In this document: positions 1 through 25,612 of the stretch, piece by piece | Layout: each line of letters begins with the position of its first letter | Numbering within the stretch: position 1 is the stretch's first letter | Position numbers and translations under genes: made by a program | Origin: Thalia democratica | Taxonomy: Eukaryota | Length of the DNA: 64,000 nucleotides | Assembly (NCBI GenBank): GCA_965202585.1 | Contig: OZ241832.1 | Coordinates: forward strand, 56,358,001-56,422,000 | Direction of reading: 5' to 3' | Notes under the pieces: generated by a model | What the model saw: only the letters and a program-made list of their open reading frames with translations | What the model was told of the DNA's origin: nothing | Databases searched by the model: none

Positions 1-790
1 AAATTTTAACAACCTGCAAAAATCGAAACAAATTTCTAGCAAAAAAAACTGTCATTTTAGTATGTGAGTCTTTTCTTGATTGCAACGCAACTGAGAAAAG
101 GTATGCGTCTTCTATTTCAATCCTTTTTTAAACCATTTGTCTTGCCCCCGACTCTTTAAAGTTTTGTAACTAAACAGGCAAGAAATAGAAGATCATATAA
201 ATATCATGGAATTTTGTTTGTTCGACAGAAGTTTTTTAAAATGTATTAAACAATAGATTTCAACAAAATTTAAAAGATAATTTGAAAACGTAGAAAATGA
301 ACATTGATAAGACAAATATTATCTTTCTTGGTTTATTGATTACATAAATATCTACGATATGCGCATTTGTCCGTTGTCGACAAATATTTAAAGTTAAATT
401 AAAAATAGATCAACTAACTCAATCTTTGAATTGTGGTTCAAGGTGGTAAAACACAACATTTATTCTGATCAAAAGAAACTCCAGATAACTAAATTTATCA
501 CCGTTAAAACAAAACTTCACAAGTTATAAAAAAATAATATCTGACAAAATGATTCGTTGTGTTCTAGATTTTTGAAAAGTTCAGTTTTAAACAATGCTTA
601 CAGAAGTAAACTGAAGCTTTTGTACTTAACAGTTTTTTTTTTGTAAATGTGTCAATCACTGGGTTTAAGCTTGAAATATTAATAAATCATTTTCTAATAT
701 AAAAAAGATGCAAACTAATAATAAATTATAGCTCCCAGAAGTTAGCCTACCTTTCTTATTGAAATTTAGAATCAGCATGTAAGGGTTCTA

Positions 791-928
791 AGAAGTGAGA
801 GAACCAACAATTACGCTGAAGCGGCTCATCGCGCCCTATACTGCGTGTTATATGGAACCAATCCTAATTTATGGAGCTTCGTACAAATGCTCAAAACAAC
901 TCAAAATACAAGAGACCTTTTTGAATAA
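791..928 (+). mobile_element. Mutator-like (MULE) transposase C-terminal remnant
   Basis: Translates RSERTNNYAEAAHRALYCVLYGTNPNLWSFVQMLKTTQ, matching the invertebrate MULE motif RTNNxxExxHxxL...HPxIWxFIxxLKxxQ. Fragment only. Confidence 0.75.
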
Positions 929-929
929 T

Positions 930-1030
930 AAAGTTTGAATAATTACTATTTTACTAGTTTTCTACATAAATTCTTATATAAAGTTGCACAAATTTCATGT
1001 TATCAAATGTTAAAAAGTTTTAAATTAAAT
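930..1030 (+). repeat. Dispersed repeat, second copy at ~11462-11565
   Basis: aataattactattttactagttt...ctacataaatt...tatataaagtt(g/a)cacaaatttcat is shared by both sites. Confidence 0.75.
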
Positions 1031-1429
1031 CAACTTCAAGAATTGTTAGCGATACTACGGTCTGATTCCATTATATTTTATGTGGTGCCAAAAGAAGCTC
1101 CCTAAAGAGAACATTGCAAAGAGAAAGACAAGCATGAGATAAAATTAGCTAGTTCTAGCATGGACAACAAAGTCTTATCTAACAAATGTAAACTGTAATA
1201 CTCCTAAAAAGTCCTAAAAGTAAATCAAGTTTCTCAGAAAAATCAGTCATCCAGTGTATGCTTTCTTAAACAACATACAGCAATCAAGGCTGGCTAATTA
1301 ACTTCAAAAAGACTTGAAATACAACAAAAGAGAACATAAGCAAGCCTGAACAGTTCTTTTTAAACCTATTAAAAATTTAATTCTTGAGCCTAGTAATTTT
1401 TTTAAAAACACTTTAAAAAATCTTACTAT

Positions 1430-1780
1430 AAGTAGTCCTGCAATATTGTCTTCAATAGAAGTAATAGATTACTAAATACAGAGAAAAACACCTTTTACTG
1501 ATGCCCAAGATATATAAGTGATTGTCTTAAAAATTTTAAAACATACTTTTGGTAGATTTGCAGTTAAAAAACTGACACAACACCTATGTCTGACTCAACA
1601 ATAGATAGAAGATGCATGCTTGTAAATCATACCAGATATATTCATTGTAAAGCATAACAGATAAGGGGTCAATAATCATGAACGACTTCAGCTATGCATA
1701 CAATAACATTAAGAACCTAGTCACTACAAGGTTATACATCTTATTGGTTTTGTAAATTCTTTTAACCGTTTTTAATAGCC
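1430..1780 (+). mobile_element. Merlin (IS1595/ISXO2-like) transposase remnant, homologous to 6960-7330
   Basis: Shares aaaaaactgac(a/t)caacacctatgtctgactc...agaagatgcatgcttgt(a/g)aatcataccagatatattcattgtaaagcat with the 7 kb copy. Many stops. Confidence 0.55.
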
Positions 1781-2650
1781 ATATAAGAGGCAGGCGACAT
1801 AAAAATATTTAAGCAATTCTAACGCATTTTTACATTAATTTTTAAATAAGAAACAATTTTATATGAAAAATATAACAAGTACTTTTTTTCAACTTCTGTT
1901 AATAAAATATACAATAACAAACAGATATAAGATATAATATAAAACTTATAAAGCTGCATGCGGGAACAACTTCCACATGAACATATTTCACACAACAACA
2001 CATAAACTTGTTCAATTTATATGTGAAAAACCAAATTGTACTAGTTGTAATTTATACAATCAGAAAATAAATTTTCTTAAAAATAAAAGTTTAACCTCAT
2101 CCAAAAATTTTATTGAAACCCTTATATATATAGGGACGCACAACAGGTGTCAAATATGAAAAGAAAATGTGCTGTAAATGATAGTAGTGGTAATAAATTT
2201 AGAATATTTAAAAATATTGCAGACGAATTTTGATCAATCGAAAATTGAAATTTTCAAATATCATTTAAGTTAATGAATAACACTAATGACAACTCAATTG
2301 ATCGGATTTGCCTGCTGTCATATTAGATGACATTAAAATGTTTAAGAAAGTGATGTTTTCTTCACTAAGAAATAAATTGATTTTGTACTTTGACAAAACC
2401 TTTAACTGCTCAGTATATCATATCAGCACAGTTTCTTTTCTTTCAGAAAGGGTGATACAAAAAAAATGATTATGGACTCAGATATGAGGGGTCTATTTCC
2501 TCCATAAATCTAGTAACAAAATATTTTTACTGGATTTTATGGTCATTTTAAAATAGTTAAGATGTCCTTTAAAAATAAATATAATTCAAGTTATTTCTTT
2601 GAGAATTTGTTTGCATTTTGCTCAGATAAGGAAGGAGGCATTGTTTCGGC

Positions 2651-3120
2651 TCTAAAAGAATGCTTTAATAACATTGACACATTTTATTGTTGTGTTCATG
2701 TATAAAAAACATTTCACACAAACTTAAAAGTAATCCTAACTTAAAATTTTTGCTAAGTAGTTTGACTAAATGTAAAAAAAAAGAAGAATTAAATGATAAA
2801 TATGCTATTATAACAAGCTCTGAATTGAATATTATATAAATAGTAATAAAAATATTCAAGATTATGTAAAAAAGATGTATTCTGTAATCAAAAATTATGT
2901 AATACACACTAAACAAATTTTGTAAATGCAGTAGTGACCTGTGCAATTGTTCTGCAATAATGAACGCTTGCGCAGAGTCAGCAAACGCTAAAATAAAAAT
3001 CATTTAAAACTTAAAACTTTAACTCCATCAGAGTTAATTGATAAACTTCTACTCCCTTAGAGAGTTTGAGAGAATTAAACAATCATCAACTTAACCACTT
3101 CAAGCAAATGTTTTCTAATA
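2651..3120. repeat. Dispersed ~470-bp repeat, second copy at ~8419-8890 (probable decayed TE)
   Basis: ctaaaagaatgctttaataacattgacacattttattg... and following sequence align across both copies with substitutions and indels. Confidence 0.85.
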
Positions 3121-3869
3121 AGGGTGACTATTAGCTATAAGTATTTTAAATTAAAGCCAAAGCAAGCTTTAAATCTAATTTTCAATTGCAAAAAGTTTAT
3201 GATTTAGATGAAATTTTAAGTACTGATTTATCTAACAAATATTTTATAAATCAAATAACTTTGACTTGAAGCATATTGTTTGTGTCTGGAAAAATGTAAG
3301 TGCAGTACATTATAAATTTTAAGTTTTTTACAATACTGAAACAAATTTTTGTTCTGTTCTTCGTGTAAAAAAATCTTATTTAATACCTGTAAATGAAACG
3401 GATGAAAACATTAATAAATTTTACAACAAATATTACAAACCAAATTTTAGATAAGCTTTTTAATACTGAAAAACAAAAAAGATTTGTAATGCTCAAATTT
3501 AGTACAGTAAAAGTTAAGGGGAAAAGACTTATACGCAAAAACAAAAGTTTCATGTCGAATCAGCTTAATTTTTTTTACTTAAGCTCTTCAGTCAGCAAAA
3601 AGTTACAGTCAAGTTTGAGCTGCATCCATTATTGGCAAATAAAAAATATATGAAAAAAAGGTTTGATCAAAATAAAAACAAATTAATTGCTGAATTTACT
3701 AGGAAGAAAGTTTTAATTGATACAACTCCAACAACAATCACTTTATTTGTAAGGATATATAATCCAAAATGTAGTTCTATATTTTTATGATGGTTTTTTA
3801 TACCAATAAATTTAAATTCTTTAACCTTATAGGTAACAAACCTAATTGAATGTTTACCTAATCGCCTCA

Positions 3870-4030
3870 ATAAGCAAATAACCACTTTAACATTGAATTA
3901 AGACAAATATCCTAACGGAATTTATTTAAGTCATTATAATTCATTTATAAGACGCTCAACAAATCTCAAACCTTAAAAGAAAAAATTCTGATATAGTACT
4001 AATTATTTCAAAACGTAGCTGTTGAGCTAC
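3870..4030. repeat. Dispersed repeat, second copy at ~11655-11820
   Basis: ttaa(c/t)attgaat...agac(g/c)ctcaacaaa...tttcaaaacgtagc...gctaca is shared. Confidence 0.65.
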
Positions 4031-5112
4031 AGTTTATTTAGAATTAATAAAAAAATAAAGATGTTTTGTTAATAATGTCCATAAAATTGAAAAAATTTAC
4101 TTGAATGGTATATGCACTGATCTCCCAATAATAATATGTTAACACGAACTAATATTAGCCGAAATGTTAAATAGTGCTAAAAATAAAAGTTTATTGCAAT
4201 TTGATGAAACATTCAATACATCTATATACCGTTTATAATTTTATCTCACTAGAAAAACAGGTGCTTCAGCCCTCATGTTAGCTATATTTTTGATGCATTC
4301 AGCTGATGATGGAATCCCTTTTTGACATGTACGGATAAGACATCACCTTTGAAAAGCTTGAAAAAAACCTCAATGATGTTTGCCCAGCTACGCATTATCG
4401 AAGAGAAAATATGCACCATGAAATTTTGGACTTAGATGAGAAGGGGGCAATTGGCAAAAGTTAGAATTCCGGGAAAACCAAAAAAATAACTATGAAAATT
4501 ATCAGTATAAACAATACTGTTAGATTAAACAGCTTAAATGGGACTTTTTTTTATTTTCTATAATGTTAAAGATGTCCATCCATAACTATACTCTGGATAA
4601 AATCAAAAAGTGGAGTGAAGAGAAAACATAAACCTAGATGGTATTGAGTTAAACAGGCTTTTAATTTGCAAGTAATACACTGAATCTGGATCAAATGTAC
4701 AACAAGTTATAATCCTGGGTGCCAAACACAAGCAGGGTGAAGACAAATGACAAACAGTTGTCTGACCACTTGAAAGTGATAAAAAACATTGACTTGGTGC
4801 TCATTGCAATTGAAGAAAACTATAGTTACATCAACTAAGATTTCCACTGATAAAATAAACAAAAAATTGTTGTCTGACAGCTTGAAAGAAAATATAAACT
4901 GAGTTTAATTATTTTACACTTAAACCATCTGCAACATACAGTGAAAATAAAAATAAACTTATCCAACTGATTATTTTTGGATAGATTGCTTACCCCTTTA
5001 GAAGGTCTTTCAATAATTCCTGACAATGTAAACCAGTTTGAATACTGTGTTTTCAGTGGTGTTGTAATAAAAAAGGAGTCTCATTGCTCTTTCAGCACTT
5101 ACCTGTGAGCTT

Positions 5113-5450
5113 TTATAAAAACTATAGGGATATCTCCGCATATACTCTGTATTGAGCTAGTGGCTCGGGGAAAAGGCCACTAGCTCCATACTTCTGGGTA
5201 ACAAAAAATTTGCAGGGTTACTTGCCTACTCACCTATAAACACAACAACTCTTCCTCTAAATTCCAGTTGCATTTAGTTTGTCTGTACAAAAGAAGAACA
5301 TTAAAGATGAAGAATACAAATACAATTTTGATGTAAACTTGCTTCCACCAAGTGTCACGGAACGGGAATTAAGTATGCCAATAAGATTGACAAGATTTTT
5401 AATCACAACAAATGTTTATGATCCATTTAATAAAATGGCATTAACGAAAG
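5113..5450. repeat. Dispersed repeat; second copy at ~11050-11385 abuts the viral element
   Basis: aaaactata(g/a)ggatat(c/a)tccgcatata...gagctagtgg...acacaacaactcttcc...aaacttgcttccaccaagtgt(c/g)acggaac is shared. Confidence 0.85.
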
Positions 5451-5679
5451 ATACAATTACAAGGAAATATCTTTAATTTCCTTTAACAAACAATACCACC
5501 CAAATGTTTCCTTTTTTAATTAAAACAAGCAAAATATTTTACTCTACCTTCGTTTTCAATATGTTGCAAATAAATATCCTTTAAACTTTAATTTTGATCT
5601 TGATGTTAATAACCAGAAAAGAAACGATGTTGAAAAAAAAAGATAAATTTTACTTATAGTTAACTAGTATGCTGTAAGT

Positions 5680-6140
5680 AAACTAGATAAAAACTTTGGT
5701 AAGGAAGAAACACCTGAGTTTTCCTAAGAAGGTTTTGATGATGAACGTTTAGTTTTGGTTTTAGAAAGTTATACTTCAAAGGAAAACCATTATCTATGTA
5801 ACGTATCCACGAAAGAGCGTGGAAAATCAAGAAAAAGCAACATCCGACCAATGGGGGGCTTACAATGTCATTGAAAGATTAGTAGATAGAAATGGTGAAC
5901 TGATGAATTAAGAACACCACACGGTTAACCATAAAGTAGGCTTGTTAACTTCGAAAACTCGTGGATACACACCCAAACCATTGAGCGGCACTGGGATGAA
6001 ATGAAGGAAGTTATCAAGAGTAGAGGGGTGAGTAAGAAGGTTGAGCAACATTTGTATAAATATAGATTTAAAAAAAATATCCATTGAACACGCTTCACCA
6101 TTTAATGGTTGAAGCAGGGAAACCATTCCCTTATTCTAGG
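5680..6140 (+). mobile_element. Merlin (IS1595/ISXO2-like DDE) transposase remnant
   Basis: From 5840: TSDQWGAYN...EHHTVNHKVG, then after a frameshift HTQTIERHWDEMKEVIKSRGVSKKVEQHLYKY. Matches the Merlin SDxWxAY...TVNHS...HTQxIExxW signature. Confidence 0.85.
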
Positions 6141-6959
6141 TTTATGAATACCCCATTATACTTTCATAAAATTTATATGGTTAAAAATGGTTTGGGAGAA
6201 ATATTGAGAAAAGAAAATCCTAGGCTCATTTCGCTTTTTAGCACTAACCATGCTTTGCAAAATGCTTGTTTGAATGCAACAAAAAAACGATGTCTAAATA
6301 AGTAAGTATTATTTTTTTATTTAAAAAATAGGTTGATGACCTGATAAATAAAACATTTGGTTATTTCAAGCTTTCTCACTTAAGGAGAGACGAGTATGAA
6401 GACCTAAGCCTATACATAAATGGAGAGATTCCTCTGAGATTCAAATCCTTATGCATAACGCAATGGATTTCTCATCGCGTTATGCATAATCGTCATTAAA
6501 TGGATAACTCTCAAAATTTTTTATAATCAAGTAAATTTAAATTAAAACATAAGTTGCTGTATTTATTCTCAAATTTGTGTGAATAACAAATGACATTCCA
6601 TTAAAAACCTACATAATTTATATACAAGTATAACTCTGACATTTTACCAGGATTTTAAAAAAATGAGTGTCCCTTTGACTCCACTTACATCTAATGTATG
6701 TTGATTTAGTTAAAATCCCTTTTTAGTAAGTAATTAGTATGTAGTTTAATATGGGTTTATCTATTACAAATTTTCCATAAATAGCAGATCATTTATGGTT
6801 ACTTTTTGACAATTATAATATTAAAAAGGCTAATGAAATACTTTCTGTGAATGATTCCAATCAAAGAATACAATCAAAAAATCTGTATATAGGAGAGAAA
6901 AGAAAGCATAGTTTCCAATTTTTTTCAAAACACTAAATAATTTTATTACAATAATATTA

Positions 6960-7330
6960 TTTCCTGCAATATTATCTACAAAAGAAGTAGTACATTACTT
7001 AATGCAAAGAAAAAACATTTTACTGGTGCTCAAGATATAAAAGTGATTGTCTTGAAAATTGTAGAACCTTTTTTGGTAGAAATGCAGCTGAAAAAACTGA
7101 CTCAACACCTATGTCTGACTCCACAACAGCTAGAAGATGCATGCTTGTGAATCATACCAGATATATTCATTGTAAAGCATTGATAGCGTTGTAGACGCCA
7201 ACAAGGTGTCGAAGGACTATAATTGCCACAATAAATCACGGTATCAGTTTTGTCAATTCTTCTAACCGTTGGGATCATACCCAAACGATAAAAAGGTTAT
7301 GGGAGACCTGAAGGAGCACATAAGTGGTCA
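6960..7330 (+). mobile_element. Merlin-like transposase remnant (internally deleted)
   Basis: TINHGISFVNSSNRWDHTQTIKRLWET near 7235-7312, preceded by a Cys-containing N-terminal-like segment with stops. Confidence 0.7.
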
Positions 7331-8418
7331 TGATAAAGGGATGGTTGTCAAATAAATGTTTTAGATATTTGTTTTTGAAATTCATAAAACAAACTACTTT
7401 CATCATTTGTTGCTTGAGTGCGGGAAGTCATTCTTGTACGAAGAAAACTAAATATTAATTTTAGCTCAACAAAAAAAAAAACTGATATTTAAAAGATTGT
7501 AAATAAATAAATAATTAGAAACAGCTCTGAAACTCAAAATGATGTTGAGTATTTAAACTCTAAAAACCTGGCAGTTGTTGCATAAGAGGGAAATAAGCAG
7601 GTTACTTTACCAGACCAACTTTGACTAATAGCATTTAATAAATCCTGGAAAGTTTGGCTCAGCAAATGAAACGTTATGAAGCAAAGTCAGGCAGCTGTTT
7701 GACAAACAGGATTTTCTTATGGACTAGTTGCACTTAAAAGCCTCAACGAAAGTAAAATAATACTTGCTAAGCGGCTGAATCTTAATAAAGTTTTAAATCG
7801 AATTTCTATATTACAATTGTTGTTATAAAATTACAAAATAGAAAGTTAAACTTAAAAAGAACATTTAAAAAAAATAGGATTTAGAAATGAAATAAGATTC
7901 CAAACGCTTTTATTGTTTTTATTTATCAATACAGGTCCTACAGCACTAAACTGCACCAAAAAATTAAACGTTGCCACACATACATGTTTCATAATACATA
8001 TTACACGAAAATACAATAATGCTTCAAGCTGACATTATGTTGCACTGTTAAAGACTGTAATGTGAAATGAAAAGGAGCTTTTAACAAAGAAGTGATTGAA
8101 CTGCAAAGACTCGGTGTTCCAAACCACAAACACACCAATAAAAATAGGAGAACTAAGCTTAGTCAAAAACAATCTGGTAATAGTTGTATAAAATTTAAAT
8201 CGTAAACATCAATATAAATAACAACCTTTTAAACATATCTAAAATAGTAAATTGCTGCTTATTAAACTTATGTTTAAAAAAATATTTTTCAAAATTTAAT
8301 AGTTTAAAGATATTAAAATGTTGCTTTTAAAACAAATTTTACTTAAAAAGAAACTATAGAACATCTGTTAGACGAAAACAGCAGCATTTACTTCAGGACG
8401 CACAGATCAGGAAGGAGA

Positions 8419-8890
8419 CTCTAAAAGAATGCTTTAATAACATTGACACATTTTATTGCTGTATTCATGTAGAAAAAACATTTCACACAAATTTAAAAGC
8501 AATCCTAACTTAAGATTTTTGCCAAGTAATTTGACTAAATGTAAAAAAATAGAAGAATTAAATGATAAATACGCTTTTATAACAAGCTCTAAATATTATA
8601 TTGTAGTATTAAAAATGTTCAAGATTATGTAAAAAAGATGTATTCTAAAATCAAAAATTATGTAATATACCCACTAAACAAATTTTGTAAATGCAGTAGT
8701 GTTCTGCAATAACGAACAATTGTGCTGAGTCAGTCAATGCTAAAATAAAAAATCATTAAGAACTTGAAAATATTACCAGATTGTTTTTGACTAATTTTAG
8801 TCCTATTTTTAAGTCTTAAACTACTCAAGAGTTAATTGATAGTTTGCGAGAATTAAACAATCATCAACTTATCAACAAATGTTGTCTAAT
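8419..8890. repeat. Second copy of the 2651-3120 repeat
   Basis: Direct alignment with 2651-3120. Confidence 0.85.
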
Positions 8891-9632
8891 TAACAATGCT
8901 GACTTTATATTTACTGGTGGTAGTTTTGAATTGAATAGTGTAGATGAAGAGTCTATAGATTGTTTGTATGACCAATTTTTTGAAACTGACCATTTTTCTT
9001 CTTCAGATGAAAAAAGTAATATCTAACCAATTAGGAGAAGGAATTTTAAATTGAGTAGGGGAGCATCAGGAGAATTATAAACAATCAGGTTTATGCTGAG
9101 TCATCAGACAAGGTTAGTTTGTATCCTATATTAGCATTATCCACAGCTCATCAATAACATTTTTGTTGCATGGTAAAAGTTAATACTGATGTATTTATGT
9201 TCATTTTTAAATAACTTACTTCTTTCATTTTAATTAGGCATAAACTAAGTCTGATGAAGATATGAGCTGTTTAACATAGCAAAGTAGAATATAAAATTAT
9301 TTTACAAGCAATAAGTGAAAATTTTAAGAAAATAAACTGATAACAACCTTTCAAAGTTTATTTAACAACAGTTCTTCAAATAACATTCCAGATCAACTTG
9401 AAAAATTGATAGATAATAAAGTAGATGATCTTTTGTAAAAAAAGATTCATGAGTTTTAAGTTGCAATAGTACTAATGAAATTAACAAAAACTCTTTAAAA
9501 TTTTTAAATGAACAGTGTCGAGCAAGATATAAAAAAGGATCATATAAATAACATGAAATTATTTTTAGCTTTTTCAGTCAAACCATCTGCACCATATAGT
9601 AAAAAGAGAAATTTAGTTACATATTCTATTAG

Positions 9633-11057
9633 GATTTTCAGATAGATCACTTACCTATTGCTTTGCACTGCGCCAAAATTGACAAGGCGTTTGCGATTTA
9701 TCAAAAACACCATGACAACATTTACAGCAAATTAAAGATTGACCCTTTTTTATCTATAATAGGAGCATATAGAAACGAAATTGAAACTCACTATAGACTT
9801 TACCTTCTCAGGTCACTTTTCAGTCAATATGATCTGAAGCTGGAGACCATTTGGAATTATGGCTCTGAAGTAATAAGTTTATTTTTGAACCTTTTTGACG
9901 GTGTCTCCCCTGAAAAGACAATAACGGCACAGAGCCTTGCCAGCCAGGAGACTAGTGACTTGGTTAACCAAGTTAAAGAGTTTCTTACGGAAAAATTTTC
10001 AAATTTAGATAAACCTGTTTTAAGTATTGTCGGAACTGTCACTGCCATGATCTGTTCACTGATAGGAGCCCCTCTCTTTTGTAGAAAGAAGGAATCATAT
10101 TTTTCAACTTTTGCCCGCTTTGGTGGCAACATATCCAAAATATCCGGTTTCTCAAAAGCTGACAGCATGTTTACGTCCGCTCTCAAAGCCCTTGGTGTTG
10201 ACATACTTGATATTAGTACTCAAGCCGAGAAGGAAGACCTTAAGGAGCTCTCTGAACTGATGGAGCACCTTGAAGATTTTCAGCTTCTTTGTACCACTAG
10301 CCAATCCGCCACTTTTCAAAAATTGGGGGACTTCATGGAGCTGGATAAGACATGCAAAGAAGTTGACAAGAAGTATGCTAATTTAATGAGCAAGGAATCT
10401 TACAAATTATTAGTGCCTGTATATAATAATTTCAAAAAATTGAGAGTTTCTCTCACAAAAATTTTGAAAGAATACATGAGCACTACTGAACGCCAAGTCC
10501 CCGTTTGTCTTTATCTTTATAGACCTCCGGGTGTAGGAAAATCTGAACTTCTACAGGAATTATCTTGCAGATTGCATAAAAAACTTGGTATAGCGAACAC
10601 CACCTATCCTCGATCCCCAACGGACAAATTCTAGTCGAATTATTGCGGGCAAAGTGTTGTTATGTACAATGACATGTTTTTGCTGGCCGATGGGAAAGAC
10701 GCGCAAGAGTTTATTTCAGCTGTCACTGCTGCCCCTTATGGTATCAATATGGGCGACCTCAGTGACAATGGAACTCATTATTCCTCAAAGTTTCTATTTT
10801 GCGCATCTAATACTGCGTACTACAACCTTTCTAACGTTGTTACTAATCCAGATGTTACAGACAGGCAACGCCATCTTATGTTTGAAGTCAGTCTTGCGGC
10901 TCCTTTCAATCCTAACAAAAAGAACGGGCTTGATTTTGACTTCAAGAATGTTATCTTGAGGCGAATGAACATTAAGAGGAATTGGATCGATTCGAAGTAC
11001 CTAGTTAATGATAGAAAGAGTAAGGCCAAGAAAGCTAACGAACAAAATTATTTATGA
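9633..11057 (+). pseudogene. Endogenous viral element: picorna-like (Picornavirales-type) polyprotein fragment, 2B-like region plus 2C superfamily-3 helicase
   Basis: ORFs 9663-10634 and 10662-11057 are in the same frame, split only by TAG 10632-10634 at the conserved W (DKF*SNYCGQ). RQVPVCLYLY-RPPGVGKS (Walker A, 10521-10544), VVMYND (Walker B, 10665-10673), INMGDLSDNGTHYSS, FCASN (motif C), DRQRH (Arg-finger position). Upstream are a candidate TAQ/S protease site (9924-9935) and a hydrophobic segment LSIVGTVTAMICSLIGAPLF. No ATG start and no introns. Confidence 0.9.
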
Positions 11058-11385
11058 AAACTATAAGGATATATCCGCATATAATTCTGTAAGGAGCTAG
11101 TGGTAATTTGCTGGGTAACTTGTTCTTTCAACTGTTACACAACAACTCTTCCACCACATGCTATTTGAATTGGGAAATTTAGCTTGTCTGTATTCAATAA
11201 ATGCATTTAAGTTGATGAAATAGGTTTTTTTTTAATGATACAAATACATTTTGATGAAAACTTGCTTCCACCAAGTGTGACGGAACTGGGATCAAGTATG
11301 CTAATGAGATTGACCGCACTTTTAATCACGACAAATGTTTGTAATTTTTTTGATACAATAACATCAAACAAAGAAGCCCTAATCA
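11050..11385. repeat. Second copy of the 5113-5450 repeat, directly 3' of the viral element
   Basis: Direct alignment; the right arm of the GC hairpin seen at 5154-5186 is deleted here. Confidence 0.8.
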
Positions 11386-11859
11386 AGAGATTTCTTCAAA
11401 TTTAGATAAAAATTGTAATATTTTAGAATTCTTAAAAGGAATTTCAAACATCTGTAATTTTCAATAATTACTATTTTACTAGTTTTCTACATAAATTAAT
11501 TATATAAAGTTACACAAATTTCATTTTACCAAATATTAAAAAGTTTTAAAATAACTTAAATTAAATATATTTAATATATATAATTTAAATTTTTAAACTT
11601 CATAGGTAATAAAGTTAATTGTCTATATACCTTATAGCGTCACTAAGCTAACAACCTTTTAATATTGAATAAAGATAAATCTTCTCGCAAGATTTATTTA
11701 AATCCTAACAATTTATTTAAAGACCCTCAACAAACCTAAAACCTCAAAGAAAAATCAATGATTAACTTGAGTGGCAACAAAAAATTTCAAAACGTAGCCG
11801 AAGGGCTACAATTTATTAAAATGTGTTAAAAAATAAAGATATCCCAACTAGGAGGCGCT

Positions 11860-12230
11860 GCCAGTTGTCTACCAGAATCTAGCAAATGCTTGGGTTGATC
11901 GTGTTATTTTCCAAGAAAAGTTTTGTTCGTGAGTGAGAAAACTTTGACAAGTAGAAAATACTTTTTTTACTTCAAAAATTGCTCTACACATCCAAGTGAG
12001 GAGGAACTAATATAGGCTGATAGGAAAATCTCTGCCAAGTTTCTGCCTTCAAATGTAACTGCAATCTTACAGCAAATAGATCAAGGTCTGCTTGTGTCTA
12101 TTAAAAGGGTCTATAGAAAATCAACTTTATGAGATTTTTTTCTGCAATCAACCTTCAACGTACAAGATTATTAAAAAGAACCTACATGATAAAAATTGCT
12201 GATACTATTGCATCAGCTTGGGATATGGTA
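11860..12230 (+). mobile_element. pogo/Tigger (Tc1-mariner superfamily, DDE_1) transposase remnant
   Basis: LPVVYQNLANAWVDRVIF...QNCSTHPSEEELI*ADRKISAKFLPSNVTAILQQIDQGLLVSIKRVYRK...IASAWDMVT. Matches the pogo LPxNxTxxxQPxDQG motif, with stops and frameshifts. Confidence 0.88.
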
Positions 12231-13599
12231 ACACCTTCTGGAATAAGAAAAACATGAAAGAAATTGTTGCCAATATTAAGCTCTTCCATGCAAAACAGTA
12301 ACCCTTTGGAAGAAACTGCATATAGCGAGTTTAGTTGAAATACTGGATCCTGACCCACTACTTGAAATTATTAAATTTAAAGAAGAGAGACTATCCCTAA
12401 GAATCAATCACATTAGAGAAATTTCATGTATCTCTTTGATATTTTTTGTTTCATTAAAAAACTTTAGAAATTATTAAGACAGAGTTAAGAAATGCCAAAT
12501 TTACAAATTTTCATGTTGATTGTACCAGTAGTTTAATCAACAAATATAAAGTTAACATTTTACTACTCCATTTGTTTACCCAGTATAAAAATTTCTTTTT
12601 CAAATGACAGTGATCTCCTTGATACAGTTGCTGATGCGATTTTAACTTATTATATTACACCTTCTATTGAAAATTTTCTAGGTAAGTTACTTCAATTGCT
12701 AGAGAAACATACTAATAAATCAAATCAAGTCAAAAAAGTAGAGTGTAGTTTTTCAGGGGGTTTAATGAATTCACTTATAAGAAAATCTTATAAATGTGAC
12801 ACCAAAGCCTTTATTCAGTGTTCTTTTAATCATTTCAATTCAGTGTTCTCTGCAGCAAAGAATTCTGTACAAAATTTTCACCTTCAAAAAAGAAATGGTA
12901 AAAATTTATTCATTTTGTCCTGCAATATTTATATTTTTAGGTTAACATTTAGCTTTTTTACCCATGTGGTCTGTTGTTTATGAAGTTCATCCTGTAAAGA
13001 ACAATGACACCAACCCAAGTGTAAAAAACTAGTTTTGTGTGATAAGAAAAAATGTTTTCAAAAATAAAAGATACAACTGCAAAATTGTTGTTTTAAAATT
13101 ATATATAAATTGAAGCAGGCGATATACTGATAGAAAAATTATTTCATCTGTACAAAATGTTTGTAAGGCAAATTAAGAAAGCTAGAATATAATTAGATAA
13201 CAGCAGTTCATCTCTAGCTGCAGAGATGTGGTCTTAGAAGAGAGCTACAAGTTATCCCGTATAAGAATTAAACAAAATACTATTATGTTTCACCTTTAAG
13301 TAAGTCATGTTTAATAAAGATATATCTTAGGTAATTTATTTTACAAGTCATATACAACGACCGACTACTTTGAGTCGAAATACTGTATTGAAGGTCATGT
13401 ATGGAAGAGTTAATTAGCTGGTAGTTTGAAAATTACAAAACATTTGGCAAACAAGAAACCCTCCACTTTATTGAGATGAAATATTTGTGTTAAAATGTTT
13501 TTTTAAATATTCATGTATGATCTTTATTTGAATAACTAATACTTTATTTCTAAATTGTTATGCACTTTTGGCTGAAAGATTGAATAGCAAAACTAAAGC

Positions 13600-13720
13600 A
13601 TTGTACCAAGCATTGATAGAAAAATTTCGAAAGCAAGAAGGGGTAAAAAACTTAGAACATGGACATAGGTACCTTTTTTTGTTCATACACTTCCAACACA
13701 TTTATAACAAAACTATGTTT
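13600..13720 (+). mobile_element. Short Merlin C-terminal remnant
   Basis: aaggggtaaaaaactt(a/t)gaac...catag(g/a)taccttttttgttca(t/a)acacttccaac is shared with 14555-14620. Confidence 0.5.
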
Positions 13721-14489
13721 TAGATTGTAAAAGGAGTAATCCAAGAGTTTGCCATTTTTCTGTTTAGAATCATATTTCATGAAGAAATTGATTTAAGAAT
13801 TTAAAACAAAAACTAAAGAAAAAGCTTGAGTAGGTGCTGTGCATCGACTCAACTTATGGCTTTTTTGATCAAATAGAAAGTCAAAATGTCTACTATAGAG
13901 TAGCATTAACTCAAGGTTACTTTATTGATTATTTAAAGTGTAACATATTAATTAAGAAAAAGTTTGTGAGTAATATGTTTTTATATAGGAAATGACGGTG
14001 AAATATTAAAAAATTAAAACACACCACCACCCATCTTTAACAGTGTCGAGCATGATCTCAACCAACCTCGACAGAACATCCTACAAGCTGTATCCGGCTA
14101 TATTAAAGAAAGACTAAAAAGTGAGAGTAAAAAAATATTTAGTTGATAATACTGTTAGCAGTTAAAATTCATGAAACAACTTTTAGGTAAGGAAGTGAAA
14201 AGGGTAGAATGCAATTGTAGCTACCCTATACTTCACGCAGTGTATGAGCAATTCAATGGCACCACACTAGATCTATACCTTAAACTATGCTACATGATTT
14301 TGCATAGTAATGGTAAGTCTTTAGGGTAAATTTGTGTGACTATTTTGTTAAGTAATATTTTTTTTTTAGAAAAACAACTTCTGTTTGATTCCTATATGAA
14401 ATATGCTGTTCATGTTTGCAGTGCGCACAACATGAACAACATGAAACGGTTATTTACAAGACATGAGGTTAAAGATAGCAAAGTGACGA

Positions 14490-14670
14490 TAATGAAGAGG
14501 TCCACACCCAGAAAGTTGAAAGCTTCTGGGGTGACCTCAAAGATAAGGTAATAAAATAAGGGGTAAAAAACTTTGAACTACATGTACATAGATACCTTTT
14601 TTTGTTCAAACACTTCCAACCTATTTCACAATTTAATGGTGGAATCAGGCAAAGCCTTTCCTTTTTCTAG
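14490..14670 (+). mobile_element. Merlin transposase C-terminal remnant
   Basis: EVHTQKVESFWGDLKDKVIK*GVKNFELHVHRYLF; the 3' part resembles 6090-6140. Confidence 0.75.
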
Positions 14671-15281
14671 ATTTATTGTTGAGCCATAGTTTTGAATAAT
14701 AATTAAAGGGTGCGTACTTTACTCCGGTGTGTACCTTACACCAGTCTCTATTTTAAGGCCTGTGAGTGTGCATTATTTTAACTTTACATACATAAAAACT
14801 AACTTAAATTCTTTTAAATTAAAAAAAATAGTGCTACCTTACGCAGGTGGTAAAGCTTATGCGTACTTCATAAGTTACAATTCTAAAATTAGGGTTTGTT
14901 ATAGAATATAAGCTTTTCAATTTCAAAATGAAACTATTTTTCACTTTGATATTGGTGCAACATCATACTAGGCAATTACCAAAATACAGTACATTTTTTT
15001 ATATGATACTTTTTACAGAAGAGACTTTATCTCAAAAAGGATAAAAATTATATACTTCACATAACTAAAGGAGTCATTGAATTTTTGTATAAATGTTTAA
15101 AAAGAAGTCTTTACCAAATGGCCTAAAAGTTTAACAGTGATACCATCTGAGGTATTAATTAAAAATATAGATTAATAAAAATGCCTACTCAATATTTTAA
15201 GGATAAATTTTGTTTATTATTAAAAGTTTCTTTAACAACTTAAATAAAAAAAAAGGTATATTTCTTCAATACAATATTTAG

Positions 15282-17497
15282 GGAGTAAAAATCAGCTAAA
15301 TTATCATAACTTGTATCATATTTGATGCCTTTAATACCAAATCACAAGAAAAGAGCAAAGGAAAAGAAATTATAGATAACATTAAGTTAGTACATTTTCA
15401 GCGATAGTTATATAAAGTTGTTTTCAACTTTTACTGCTTCTAGTAACAATAAGTATAAGATAACATTTAATTTAATTTTTATTAAAATAGGCGACAAGTT
15501 AAAAGGGATATTGAGTTATTACAGAAAGTGAGTGAACTTAAAGCTGTAGAAATAGACCACAACTTACAATCAGACAACACTAGCTGTGGACTACATGTCA
15601 TCGAGGTAAGAACTACAATAAATTATTTTGTAATTGTTCTTAGAAAATAAAAGTTTTCCTTTTAATATTAATCTTCAGGCTGCAGAGCAAATACTCTCAA
15701 GTTTTCTGCTTTTACCAGAAGAAATAGTACTAAAAACAAGGGGGACAAGAACTATTTAAAACGATTAGACGTGGCAACAAAGTTGATAACGGATGGAGGT
15801 AAAACTAATTGTTACAAAACTTTTTAAGATAAAAAAGTAACACTTATATAAATTATATAACTAATAAGATTACATGTTCATGGTTGCCACTGATCAAGCT
15901 GAGAAAAATTTCCTGACTTTTCCTGACTTTTTACCAAAACTAACCTGACTTTTCTAAATCAAATTCTTAAACTAAACTTATTCTAAAGTACATAATCTAC
16001 CACTTGGAACTATATAAAACTTTCAATCTAAATTTAGTACAGGTTGAAAACAACAGTTTTTTGCAGAATTCTATCATCAAACTTCCAGTACATTACTTAA
16101 ACCATCTGTGTATGATTGATGTTTGTAATAAACAGCTCTATCAGCAAAATACTTGTATTATTACCTTATAAATACAGGTTGTCTGAAAAAAGACACAATT
16201 TTTTAGCATTTCCTAGCATAAATGTATTTAGATAAACAAACGACATATAAGGAACTTTTACAATTAAAACCTTGAATTAATAACAAACTTTCACAACTAA
16301 AATCTTAAAACAATAACAAGTTTTTACAGATGAAACCTTAAAACAATTTAAAAAAAATTTGGAATTTCCTAGCATAAATGTATCTAAATAAACAAAACAA
16401 CATATAAGGAACTTTTACAAATAAAACCTTAAATTAATTAGGAACTTTCACAACTCAAACCTTAAAACAATAACAAACTTTTACAGTTAAAACATTAAAG
16501 AACTTAATCAATACTGTTTTTTTAAATGTATGTAGTAAAATTTATTTTCTGTTTTTTTATTAGCACTACAACCTCTTCATCTAATGAAGAAATGGTTTGA
16601 TAACTTTGATTTTAAAATTATGCTAGATAAACTTTTTTGTATATATCACAGTTTCACTATGGAAGTGTCCTTGCTACAGATTATCAATACTGAAAAACTT
16701 AGAAAATCTGCTTGTTCAAGTAGGGTACTTGTTCAATATATTAATAGTAATTTTTTGCAGTTTTATAAAGGATATTTTACTAATTTAAACCAGATGAAGG
16801 CATTGGAAATAAAATCTCAAAAAGTTATAAATTTATAGGAAAATTTTAGAATTTTTTCTGACTTTAAAGGACTTTTAATTAATTTTTACCATTTGAAGGC
16901 TCTAGAAAACAAGGAATTTTGTGAATTTAAACTGACAAAATCTGAATTTTTTTTTTAATCTTATCAAATTTCCTGACTTTTCCTGACTTTTTTTTTTAAC
17001 CCCCCATTTTTTCCTGACTTTTCCTGACTTTTTTCATTTTTTTAAATTTTTCCTGACTTTTCCTGATTTCCTGACTTTTCCTGACCGAGTGGCAACCCTG
17101 CATGTTTTATATAAGAAAATAGTTTTCAAATATAACTAAAACTTTCTCTACAGTTGTAAATACGAATGCTTGCAGCATTTGCAAGTATTTTCACCCTGTT
17201 AGAAGGCAAGCTGAAAAAATTGGAAAGAACAAAAAAGTTAAATGGGTTAGATTAATTGATTGTATCAAATGTATGTTAATATTCCAAAGACTAGTACTAA
17301 ATAAAGTTAAACTAATAATTTAAGTAGACAGTTAACTAATTAAAGTCATTGATTTTCAGTTAGGATGTCATAACTGCAATAAGTGGTATCACATATGTTG
17401 CCTGGACATGACAGAGGAAGAATACAATCGGCTAGAAAACAGAGAATACTTTTGTAGTTTTTGTGACTGTATAGCGCCAAATGAAATTGAAGAATAA
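15282..17497 (+). pseudogene. Spliced Ulp1/SENP-like (C48) protease C-terminus plus PHD finger pseudogene, probably transposon-borne
   Basis: GT-AG exons 15491-15605 (...HNLQSDNTSCGLHVIE, QxDxxSCG catalytic Cys motif), 15679-15798 (1-nt frameshift), 17154-17245 and 17360-17497. The last two join to CSIC...KW|LGCHNCNKWYHICC...YFCSFC, a C4HC3 PHD finger. Upstream exon 15282-15385 contains a stop. Confidence 0.8.
15879..17100. mobile_element. Non-autonomous hAT-like element with CA(G/T)GGTTGCCACT TIRs, TTCCTGACT subterminal repeats and 6-bp TSD
   Basis: catgtt|catggttgccact...agtggcaaccctg|catgtt; includes an internal ~155-bp tandem duplication near 16200-16500. Confidence 0.85.
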
Positions 17498-18325
17498 ACC
17501 GTTAAATGTGATATTGTTTGTTAATGTTATAAAAATTGACATTACTGTAAAAAGCAATGAAATAAAAAACTATCATAAAACTAAACAAACAAAAATTTAA
17601 AAATTTTATGTCAAAGAGTTATATATTAAATGCTTTGTATTAGTTAAAATAGTAGTATATGTAATAGGTATAATGATAGTATAGGTCAAAAGAACAGCGT
17701 TACGTTTTTGGTTAGACGCTATATTTTATAGTAATTTTTGGGTACTTAACCATTTGTACAAAAATGGTCAAATGACCAATTTTATTGACACCTTTTGGGG
17801 ACAAGACCTAGTAATACACAAATAAAAAGTTTCAAAGTTCTAAGTTAAGGTTTAGTATGTTAAAATGTTAGAAGACCAGTGCACTGAAGTTTCGAAATTT
17901 TTAATTTCGAATTTTGTAGTAACTTCTTGTTCATACTTGTTTTAAAATTTAAAAATCCCATATTGAATTATTAAAACAGTTCTACAAAATGTAATTCTAA
18001 AATTCTAAGGTTAGTAAATAAAAGTGCAGGTAGACACATTTTGTTAAAAAAAATAAGTAATAAGTAAAGTGCTCCCTATAACTGAAAATGAATAAATTTA
18101 ATATCATCAGAATTACCACTCTTTAAGGCAAAAAATCCAACCTGATTGAGCAAAAACTAGCATGAGTTGACTTAACTTTATAGTTGAATTAGACCTTATT
18201 ATAAGCCAAAATTTTGTATAGTATACTATCTGCCAAGCTTAAATACCTAAAATTATTATACAAATAACTTTTGAACTTGACAATGAAAATTTTATTTTTA
18301 AATTGTTTGAGTTTTAAAAAACTTG

Positions 18326-19096
18326 GTTATGGTTAACTTTAGGTTAGCACCAATATCAAGCTCCAATTATAATACATTTGATGTCATTATTTACAGGGTT
18401 GCCACTCATTTTTTCAAATTTTTTTTCAAGTTTTTCTAAATTTCTTCCAGGTTTTTAAAAGTACACATTTTGTGTCTATTTTTAGTTTAAAGTTGAGTTT
18501 AATGTAAGAAACTGTGTTAAATAGTATAAAAACATAGAAAAGATACTGTAAGGTACTTTAAATGTGTTTTTAATAGAAAAGTTTTTAGGTGATGACAAAA
18601 AATCTTATTAATATGATAGATTTTTTGTATCAAACTGAAATTTTACTACTGAATTGTTAAAAAAAAAATGTTCAATTGTTAATAATTCTAGGTTTTTCCA
18701 GGTTTTTTGTTCAAAATTCCAGGTTTTTCCAGGTTTCCAGGTAAAGTGGCAACCCTGTATTTAATCATAATTTTGAGCTAAAAATTTATCTTTTATAAAT
18801 ACATGAACAAAATCTAATTTATATAACATAAACTTTTCAGATTAAATATTTAATTGCTTTTATTTTACAATACAAAGTGATTATATTAATACTATAATTC
18901 ATGTTGATTATGATATTGTAAAATAATATTAATTAAATATTTACTTTATAATATAATAATTTAGTTCTTACTATGTATTTATATAGCTTGTTTAAAACAA
19001 ACTATCATTTTTTAGCCTAAAATTATGGTTAAATAAGACATGAAATGTATTATATTTTAAGTAAGGTATTGGTGCTCACCTAAAGTTAACCATAAA
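18326..19096. repeat. Long imperfect palindrome (foldback element) centred near 18885, left arm interrupted by a MITE
   Basis: 18326-18393 is the reverse complement of ~19030-19096. Inner arms 18758-18783/19008-19036 and ~18843-18877/18911-18942 also pair. Confidence 0.8.
18394..18757. mobile_element. MITE with CAGGGTTGCCACT TIRs and 6-bp TSD
   Basis: tattta|cagggttgccact...agtggcaaccctg|tattta; ttccaggt subterminal repeats. Confidence 0.9.
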
Positions 19097-22000
19097 CAAA
19101 ATCTTTATAAAAAGCCTAAGTAGCAACGCTTTCTTATCAGACAAAATTTAACCTAGTACTTCTGATAAATCTAAACCATTTAAAGTCAATTTTAATTTAT
19201 ATAAGATTACTTGAGTTTTCATTTTTTATTGACTAACAACATTCAATACTATTTGACTTTAGTTGTGACCAAATCTAAGTTTCATGAATTATTTGGAAAT
19301 TTCTTCATCTAATATACAGGTAAAAAAATTATTTTTAATTTTTTTAAAAAAAAAGAACTGAAGTTAACTTATTACAAATTGAAATAATTAACTAGTTTTA
19401 AGGACTTTAAAATTAAAACTGATTTTCTACTAAAACCATTGTTGAGAATAATATTTACTATAATATATAACAAAACTCATTAACTGAAAATAATTAAAAC
19501 AGTATTAGTTAAACTAACTATTGGTGGTGAGACAGCCATTTTGCTAAGAGAGAGAGAGAAAGTGATTAGAAAATTTTTTGGTGCACATATTGAGAAGCAG
19601 GTATTATTTCTTCACAATGAAAACTTAATTTAGACTTTTTTGACCTTTAACCTCAGTGCTACCAATCAATATTAAATTAGTAGCGCGGAGTTTAAATCAA
19701 GTAAACTAAATTATCAAAGTTAAAAAATCAAAAATTAGAAATATAAAACAATAAGAAAACATGTATTATCAAGTACATGATCATCAATCTAGTAGTATTT
19801 TTTTATAAAAAATTTCGTATGAAAATATCACGAAAAAAATCATACAACTTACAAGTATAAATCTAGCATTTTATAATAAAAATATATACTTATAATCATT
19901 AACTTAAAGTTATTTTTTCTTAGATATCGTTTATACAGACTATTAAAGGCTTTTTAATGTTATTATATACTCTGTTGTCGATAGAATTTTGTTCAAAACA
20001 TTTGTGTTGAAAATTTTTTTTTTAAGGTTTTTTTTTGTATCTTAAAATACTGTTTAAGTTGACCTGTTTAACATAAGTTTAAGTATTTTTTTCTTATGTA
20101 TTGATTTCTCTATTAAATCAGTTTATAGTGTATTTAGTGGTTTATTAGCATAAAAAATAATAATAAAATTTAACTAAAGTTAAAAGAGAGATTGGTATGG
20201 AAATGGAACCTAAAATACTTTATTTGTCTAACTGTCATACGTTGCTAATTTATGGTTATTTTCTTTATTACAAACGAAATAAATAAAAAGAAGTAGCTTT
20301 ACATGTTAAATCTAAAGTTTAAAAGAATGATATAACTTTTAAAAACGTAAAAAATTATAAAATTAGATTATTTCCCTATGGTGCTTAACTTAATTTTCGG
20401 GTCAACTAATTTTAAGAGTAGTTTTATTAAATATGTTTAAGATTAAATAAATAACAATAAACTAACTTATTTACTTAGCTGAAAATTAAGGTTTCTAACG
20501 GAGTTTCAACTTTACCACGTTTTTTTAAATTAAAATTTTACTAATAAACATTAACCTTTTATCAGGTTTTTGTTTTGTTTTACCATGTGTTCTACGTAGT
20601 GTTTCACAATAGGTATGTTTTTTCAAAGTGTGTTCCAACAAAACAGAAATATTCGTTAGGATGTTATACAGAAGTTTTTCCAAAGCTTCAACATTAATAG
20701 GAATTTATAACAGTCGGAAAACATAACAATGTTCTTAAAAATGTACAATTAATTTACCGATAAAGTAGTGCCTTGTTACCGTTTAAGTTGACAGTGCAAA
20801 AAACAGAAGAAATAACAACGAAACTTGACCGAAAAATTCAACGAATATAAAAACATAAATAACAAACTTCAAAAAGAATTTAACGCTGATAAAAGAGATT
20901 GAGTGGAGACTAATAATGTCAGAACACCGAAGAAAACCATTAAACTGATCATTATAACAATTTTCAGCATACTTACGATTTAATACACATACAAACGTTT
21001 GAGTGCTCAGCTACTGGTGGTCAGTCCACATGTAAACGTTTTTGTGTCAACTTGGCCGCTGGGGGCGTAACAGAGTGATAGGTGATAGACACTCATAAAA
21101 AGTTCATGTAAAAAGAAAAACCAGCGCTACAATCTGTAAATAGTTAATCTAGTATTATACCATTACTTAAAACTTTATTTTTTGCACATCAATTTAACTT
21201 AGAACCATTGAAAAAATACATATATCAATTAAGGCTGAAATTTATTTATATATATTTTTTTTAATTTAAAATGTAACTTGATTAATTTTCTGATACGCCA
21301 AACATTGTATTAACTAAAATTAATATTAGAATAAAATAGCTAAAGTTGCTGCTTTTCTTATAGTTAAATGTAACTATTTTATTTTTAACTAACAAAGCTA
21401 ATTATCTGAAAAAGTCTCATACCTATTATTTGCAACATTTGAACTCGGATCATAGTTGTTGGTAAAATTTGGAATATAAACATATTGAACAGCGTAACTG
21501 CATACACAACGTAAACCTTGATCAGCATGGAGGAGATAAGGACCCTTAACCCTGGTTCCTGTCCAACCATTGGTTAGGAGGTTAAAAACGTTGGGTCATT
21601 ATTCTTCCATACTTATCTGGTCATTTTTAACTGACGGTGGTTCACTTGTCCTTCTGGTTCATGATGAGTCCTTATCAGAATGGTTATAATATTGGAAATA
21701 ACGTGGGAAACATATTGTTTACTTTTGATTTTGTGGGTTAAATTGTTAAGATAATTACATTAAAATTTTTCTAAGCATTTTGATTGCAGTCAAAAGAATT
21801 TTTAGTATAAAACAAAACATGTTTGTTTTTTTAGTAAGTAAAGTTTACTTTCCGACTATTTTTTGTCAAGTTTAACTGCCCTTAACACTAAAAGTATATA
21901 ACGTAAAAGTTTAAAAATTTATAAATTTTACTATCTTAAATATAAGAAAAAAAACTTTATTTTAAAATATATAAATATGGTTTATCTTTTAAGTTTCTAT

Positions 22001-25379: not shown

Positions 25380-25612
25380 TCACGAGCTGTTGGCGAGGAA
25401 CTTCTTCAGCGCGCTCAGCACATTCCTCGTTTCCGCCTCGCTCACCAGTTTCGACTTGAGGGATTCCCCGCCGACGCGCACCAGCTGGCACGCCAACCTT
25501 CCCGCCTCCTTGCTGACGATCAGGTTGCTCGATGACGTCATCATTACGTCGAAGAGCACTTTGAACACGTGACGCTCGAGCATCGATTGTGACGTGATGC
25601 GTGGCAGCAGTG
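25380..25612 (-). CDS. TOGARAM1: TOGARAM1-like exon 32 (stop)
   Basis: LLPRITSQSMLERHVFKVLF...KKFLANSS*. Confidence 0.9.

Follow-up and report, generated by a model that had tools for sequence, protein, structure and literature searches.

Background

Good documentation exists in Aedes mosquitoes for clusters of PIWI-interacting RNA (piRNA) that trap endogenous viral elements (EVEs); such clusters may be peculiar to insects or may be used by animals more widely. Here we describe a block of transposon fragments in Thalia democratica, all coding on one strand, which also holds a piece of a picorna-like virus. It lies in a stretch of 64,000 nucleotides on contig OZ241832.1 (chromosome C8, positions 56,358,001-56,422,000; assembly 802 Mb), which is called the window below and from whose first letter positions are counted. 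We consider it probable, at about 0.65, that the locus is a uni-strand, Aedes/flamenco-like piRNA cluster read on the minus strand from a non-coding head at 19.2-20.4 kb.

The Aedes core clusters are uni-strand loci with an enrichment of antisense EVEs, and read-through drives them (10.1101/2022.08.22.504762). Like them, the Thalia array carries several non-retroviral EVEs in one orientation on one strand, sits downstream of a host gene and has gained EVEs over time. Unlike them, it belongs to a chordate and has a conserved head that was duplicated together with its units; read-through from one gene does not explain all six heads, and in this it also differs from Aedes. Strand bias in the DNA was how loci resembling flamenco (flam-like) were first predicted, and small-RNA sequencing then confirmed them (PMC10643416). 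Dense transposon fragments with a strong one-strand bias are common to flamenco, the flam-like loci and the Thalia array. In flam-like loci, however, the bias is driven by Gypsy elements with long terminal repeats (LTRs), and the loci measure 227-1085 kb in several species (PMC10643416), whereas no Gypsy-driven bias is seen here. The Thalia array consists mainly of DNA transposons (MULE, Merlin, pogo, hAT) and Penelope elements, with LTR pieces in the minority, is made up of abutting pieces of 0.2-2 kb, contains RNA-virus pieces and has units of tens of kb.

EVE-derived piRNA-like RNAs have been described for a rhabdo-like EVE of the dog whelk (PMC6085071) and for borna- and filovirus EVEs of the koala (PMC8449507). 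The available portions of these two sources do not describe a cluster architecture, and the vertebrate EVE families in them include neither picorna-like viruses nor reoviruses. Those of an amphioxus paper (PMC10145014) have no piRNA content. A literature search that covered few subscription journals and no supplements turned up no paper on piRNA clusters in tunicates or on EVEs of RNA viruses in them.

Results and discussion

Fragments on one strand

The coding strand of the fragments was fixed from the long open reading frames (ORFs) of more intact dispersed copies in the same genome. By this comparison, 11 distinct families between 1 and 17.9 kb code on the plus strand (MULE-A, Fam136, Merlin-A, Merlin-B, Merlin-C, Fam056, Fam141, a pogo-type DDE_1 element, a MULE-like element with Ulp1, an Ulp1-PHD element and the virus) and none on the minus strand. 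One repeat (3638-4298) and the miniature inverted-repeat transposable elements (MITEs) carry no strand call in this count. With duplicates collapsed to 11 independent families, the two-sided probability of a single strand is p ~0.001, for a window picked post hoc. The sequence-only reading, which had placed all pieces on the plus strand, was right in this respect, and six plus-strand pieces can be added to those it listed. Among 266 stop-free segments of at least 30 amino acids (124 plus, 142 minus), with the two viral ORFs scanned separately, DDE_1 and PHD were the only Pfam matches below 1e-3, both on the plus strand; the 142 minus-strand segments gave no Pfam match below E 0.02. No host gene was found in the block, as had been proposed, with the limit that short exons could escape detection.

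The fragments are internal pieces of 0.2-1.5 kb, often abutting within a few bases, and together they make up at least 59% of the block. At least two have kept introns, so that they derive from DNA or unspliced RNA. The AT skew is +0.074 and positive in all 12 five-kb bins, against an average of 0.003 (sd 0.042) for random stretches; it is not independent evidence, because coding strands are A-rich. Of the window's 25-mers, 3354 of 17876 (19%) match a dispersed copy at no more than two mismatches, so that targeting of transposons is feasible.

Individual fragments, all on the plus strand unless said otherwise, are as follows. The MULE that had been noted at 791 is a MULE-like C-terminal piece (792..935), identified by eye from its translation and from an RTNN..E..H motif that we take to be a MULE mark; a homolog search with it gave no match. 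The Merlin-A piece at 1395..1800, Merlin-like by eye in translation, duplicates the 3' part of a Merlin-A transposase at 6917..7475 (84% identity between 1395-1655 and 6917-7180). Merlin calls were made by tblastn with intact own-genome Merlin ORFs, which matched 7228-7445 of the latter piece, the 3' part of Merlin-B (5843..6174) at 5843-6179 (E 8e-43; 86% DNA identity to intact copies) and the 3' part of Merlin-C at 14482..14665. Of the four Merlin pieces proposed earlier, all are on the plus strand, but they represent three families, since the piece at 1430 duplicates that at 6960, and 5680-5836 belongs to another repeat.

MULE-A transposase fragments fill 1938..3454 (71-83% to dispersed copies) in an order permuted relative to intact copies, and a second MULE-A fragment lies at 8400..9257; intact dispersed MULE-A copies have ORFs of 748-819 amino acids, with PF00872 and PF10551 on the intact ORF. 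The dispersed-repeat fragment without strand call (3638..4298) has dispersed copies at ~70%. Fam136, an unclassified repeat with a 403-amino-acid ORF in intact copies, occupies 4894..5836 and, as the right flank of the viral insertion, 11051..11402. A Fam056 fragment with a retained intron (7778..8394; MULE-like by eye) is found to the left of the virus. To its right follow a pogo/Tigger-type fragment (11899..12333) with DDE_1 at 12016-12129 (E 6.7e-5), MULE-like fragments whose intact copies carry an Ulp1 protease (12336..13389), a Fam141 fragment (13698..14486; MULE-like by eye; 90% to dispersed copies) and a young Ulp1-PHD element (15308..17881; PHD at 17336-17494; 95% to dispersed copies) split by a MITE at 15879-17100. 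The last two are specific to this unit. The plus-strand pogo and Ulp1-PHD calls of the earlier reading are thus borne out.

The picorna-like viral piece

The viral piece at 9659..11050 (+) contains a 2C-type helicase (RNA_helicase, PF00910) and the region before it, and is picorna-like (Pisuviricota). It is a real non-retroviral integration, as seen from its RNA-virus homology, its host flanks and the empty sites in paralogs. Its sole match among 4212 longer candidates, protein P0001, is 63% identical over 468 aligned amino acids, and neither a relative nor the cognate virus was found in viral contigs. The piece resembles picornaviral 2C structures, and atlas clusters give only Pisuviricota. 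Its ORF has one in-frame stop (10632-10634) and a degenerate Walker A motif. It is single-copy in the genome, and its GC content is 39% against 29% in the surroundings.

The insertion replaces ~115 bp of a Fam136 fragment. At three paralogous sites the virus is missing, and the gap there measures 108-121 bp. The fragment had been proposed to span 9633-11057; it is indeed viral and on the plus strand, but its limits are 9659-11050, and what lies outside them matches the empty paralog. Inspection of the junctions revealed no target duplication and no poly(A). In both X1 and X2, which come from a single sample, perhaps the one that was assembled, a short-read contig of 1491 nt runs across both junctions without any difference. 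In X3, from a second study, a contig of depth 4 over 9660-11080 has 37 differences (97% identity) and the same right junction. On the left flank, this X3 contig has 296 different bases; it would represent another allele or a related organism.

A larger array with paralogs

The block is the end of an array of ~60 kb: in a self-comparison, direct duplicates extend from ~53 kb upstream of the window to 21.5 kb. The chromosome also carries paralogous arrays at a distance of 26 Mb, inverted at C8:29.98-30.01 Mb and again at C8:30.13-30.25 Mb. Strands were counted with a library of transposon and viral ORFs taken from the array itself, which inflates any density contrast. From 68 kb upstream to 15.5 kb, 35 of 35 library matches are on the plus strand (two self-matches and one unassigned 72-bp match included); in the inverted paralog 12/12 are on the minus strand, and at C8:30.13-30.29 Mb 56/56 are on the plus strand, all these counts being inflated by duplication. 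Penelope matches between and beyond the C8 30-Mb arms are on mixed strands.

Nine candidates for late insertions were tested. Five of them (the picorna-like EVE, Fam141, Ulp1-PHD and two nucleocapsid EVEs) occur in one unit only, the corresponding sites in paralogs being empty, and all five are co-oriented. One candidate is shared, and for three (an LTR-reovirus element, a hAT piece and the nucleocapsid copy 21 kb upstream) an empty site was not recovered. Pogo was dropped as a late insertion, since a paralog has it as well. An intronless RING-finger ORF of 281 amino acids lies on the plus strand between two head copies, 49 kb upstream of the window (L020:893-1735).

Other viral pieces in the arrays

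Tenuivirus/phlebovirus-like (phenuivirus-like) nucleocapsid ORFs were found at 30.15 Mb and, outside the window on its upstream side, at distances of 11 kb and 21 kb. Their Tenui_N matches in Pfam (E 6e-4 to 3e-3; 6e-4 for the 11-kb and 2e-3 for the 21-kb copy) fall short of the cut-off. A nucleocapsid profile search yielded nine relatives; seven were scanned, of which five match PF05733, and one (P0023) passes the Pfam cut-off. Searches of PDB and the atlas with the nucleocapsid ORF gave no match. The 11-kb copy is a blunt insertion whose matching empty site is at 7931 in the window, inside the Fam056 fragment.

A reovirus polymerase (E 2e-41 against PDB 7xr3), present at C8 30.16 and 30.23 Mb, is in frame with a gag-like ORF that carries a Y-box-type cold-shock domain. 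This element is flanked by 480-bp repeats, 99.6% identical, from an abundant LTR family, and is a very recent chimera of retroelement and virus. It occupies L102:697-6749 (C8:30.231-30.237 Mb) and is also found in L095; related pieces are at C4:0.295 Mb and C6:41.29 Mb. EVEs share one orientation within each locus: the picorna-like and two nucleocapsid pieces here, nucleocapsid and reovirus in the paralogs. Searches for Bunya RdRp and RdRP_4 gave no match, their controls being silent too, and two unassigned ORFs had no match in PDB.

Unrelated loci

As an out-of-sample set, 100-170 kb around five other EVE matches were analysed. At C6:67.114-67.134 Mb, a locus picked solely by its nucleocapsid match, 11 of 11 library matches are on the plus strand (two self-matches included). 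It contains two nucleocapsid pieces as well as an open ORF of 461 amino acids for a rhabdovirus nucleocapsid (E 2e-44; L212:8074-9456; C6:67.128 Mb); two opposed gag matches lie outside. The sequence it has in common with the C8 array is one MITE. Shorter pieces of rhabdovirus nucleocapsid are present on C7 and C2. At C5:14.85-14.94 Mb, 7/7 matches are on the plus strand, and at C5:15.14-15.26 Mb, where a picorna-like polymerase and a reovirus VP3-like ORF are found, 9/10 are on the minus strand. These viral pieces, SUMO-like ORFs and several unassigned ORFs of L262-L268 (C5:15.19-15.26 Mb) are all on the minus strand. The C4 and C6:41 Mb sites have few library matches. In a random control of 20 stretches of 10 kb, the library, biased to the array as it is, gave four matches in two stretches, opposed within both.

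By coordinates, matches of the same repeat families are all on the plus strand at C1:23.02-23.10 Mb, where 23.095 Mb is the site of a Mononegavirales polymerase EVE; at C1:23.34-23.44 Mb they are all on the minus strand. These two arms, and likewise C5:14.85 and 15.2 Mb, hint at divergent two-armed clusters.

A conserved head and the direction of transcription

A non-coding head of 1.2 kb at 19150..20390 (-) is common to six units on C8. All eight candidates were scored and six are head copies, 67-78% identical to the window head and all in the C8 arrays. Five lie at that end of a fragment unit which would be upstream for an antisense transcript; the sixth, a 96% duplicate, is followed by few fragments. 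Within the head, a 24-mer (19633..19656, -) is invariant in 6/6 copies, where ~47% of head columns are. At up to two mismatches it occurs exactly six times genome-wide, each time in a head, and its reversed control does not occur. It contains what we take to be a DR1-like nuclear-receptor repeat. From this conservation we infer that the head is a candidate promoter. The head was also considered as a structured RNA and rejected: a hairpin is predicted, but two-sided change was seen in 1 of 31 pairs, and there was no Rfam match.

The direction of transcription was approached with a MITE at 18388..18760 (no strand of its own), which is oriented here as it is beside minus-strand host genes. There are 50 copies in the fetched regions, 24 of them within 10 kb of a host ORF and 17 unclassed. 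In 23 of the 24 (~12 of 13 gene neighbourhoods) the MITE is opposite to the nearest host ORF, and all nine in-cluster copies (~6 independent) are oriented as for transcription against the fragments. This test, designed after the data were seen, supports a predicted minus-strand transcription of the array. The MITE may serve as a transcription compass elsewhere in this genome. Substitution asymmetry was dropped as a sign of transcription. On the plus strand A>G is below T>C (ratio 0.68, p 0.0006; window singletons 0.71), but the ratio is 0.79 for dispersed copies, taken on their coding strand, and 0.80 for singletons of the cluster (Fisher p 0.58), and the control thus failed.

How such a locus would work and what weighs against it

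If the locus is a piRNA cluster, RNA polymerase II would start at the head, or read through it, on the minus strand. As the fragments code on the plus strand, small RNAs from such a transcript would be antisense to transposon and viral mRNA. Pieces of transposon DNA and viral cDNA, the latter made by host retroelements, would have been captured at breaks, as suggested by viral junctions without target duplication or poly(A). Antisense insertions would be retained and sense insertions purged, and the transcript would be processed into Piwi-bound RNAs; the genome has at least eight loci with a Piwi domain (Ago and Piwi counted together). Silencing of transposons is a more likely use than antiviral action, which is possible as a putative function. 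The anti-picornavirus guides proposed by the sequence-only reading are not supported so far, the nearest sampled viral protein being 63% identical. The piRNA-cluster-like layout that it proposed is present in the DNA, with one-strand packing, several virus orders, an unrelated locus and a candidate promoter; that much of the block is segmental duplication had been missed.

Several observations weigh against a uni-strand piRNA cluster. Paralogous arrays repeat 75% of the block, so that raw strand counts overstate the bias. The antisense bias of the MITE is general near genes in this genome, which shows that co-orientation by itself is not specific to piRNA clusters. The head and its 24-mer do not occur in the non-paralogous loci, and some EVEs lie at loci without a demonstrated cluster layout. 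The two C5 regions are less clean, with host kelch, lectin and actin ORFs in them and an opposed long interspersed nuclear element in the first, and an opposed copy resembling a solo LTR lies just past the far edge of the array. With 63% protein identity, the nearest viral relative is probably too distant to be targeted by base pairing. The EVEs of horseshoe crabs yielded no piRNAs (PMC12282059).

Other explanations

The locus may instead be a minus-strand long non-coding RNA, a read-through unit or a region of relaxed selection, in which antisense debris was left by general purge and segmental duplication without dedicated piRNAs. This explanation, which we consider unlikely, stays alive because the antisense bias of the MITE extends to host genes in general, and the duplication of the block also fits it. 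A multi-exon host gene with TOG domains (25383..44505, -) extends to 44.5 kb or beyond, and its last exon, at 25.4 kb, brings it to within 5 kb of the head on the upstream side. Two other heads have kelch ORFs 4 kb upstream, so that either is a possible source of read-through. Such a unit does not alone predict pieces of several unrelated RNA viruses at separate loci, however, and it leaves the near-complete strand bias and the retention of the head in six units unexplained.

A source of antisense endogenous small interfering RNAs, or a dual-strand germline cluster, is improbable. The same layout could in general feed Dicer through pairing with transposon or viral mRNA, but salps and Ciona make RNAs of piRNA size (PMC5174732, PMC5897368). 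Dual-strand clusters syntenic to flam exist, with a reduced strand bias (PMC10643416), whereas the bias here is complete.

Helitron- and Pack-MULE-like elements are known to capture fragments in one orientation. A giant composite element of this type that takes up fragments in its own orientation and multiplies as tandem copies would also account for head-to-tail units with a common end. We nevertheless regard it as very improbable: common termini and dispersed whole-unit copies were not seen, the units occur at only two places on one chromosome, no terminal structure was seen at the head, insertions went on after duplication, and unrelated loci have the same layout without common sequence. 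A Helitron family search gave no match, its control being silent too.

Chance orientation combined with duplication, or a viral piece that arose by misassembly, has next to no probability: the post hoc choice of the window and the many duplicates speak for it, the value of p ~0.001 for 11 families, the replication at C6, the contig across both viral junctions and the 97% identical second-study contig with its right junction against it.

Neighbouring sequences

The TOG-domain gene, presumably TOGARAM/FAM179-like, has close relatives in environmental collections (89-99% on one exon). Positions 61055-61505 and 63602-64000 are near-identical duplicates at a spacing of 2.5 kb, with tandem units of 26 bp and 53 bp. 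The mitochondrial COX1 gives a correct translation only if AGA/AGG encode glycine (NCBI table 13), and the chromosome ends carry TTAGGG repeats; by these two marks the host is a tunicate. Nuclear copies of mitochondrial COX1 were found at C4:56.84-56.94 Mb and C757.

Implications

As a resource, the array offers a single-copy EVE as a uniquely mapping target, a candidate promoter with an invariant motif, and empty and filled paralogs side by side. It also records tunicate RNA viruses that are otherwise unsampled. A broader reading is tentative, and we think it doubtful as a whole: one-strand piRNA clusters across the genome would archive at least four RNA-virus orders (picorna-like, bunya-like, reo and mononega) together with DNA transposons, one family of them would duplicate with a nuclear-receptor-driven promoter, and an active LTR family would ferry viral cDNA into it. 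If this were true, it would be a heritable antiviral memory of the mosquito style in the sister group of vertebrates. A tunicate case would in any event put EVE-trapping clusters beside the vertebrates, with a different cargo of DNA transposons and picorna-like and reovirus pieces.

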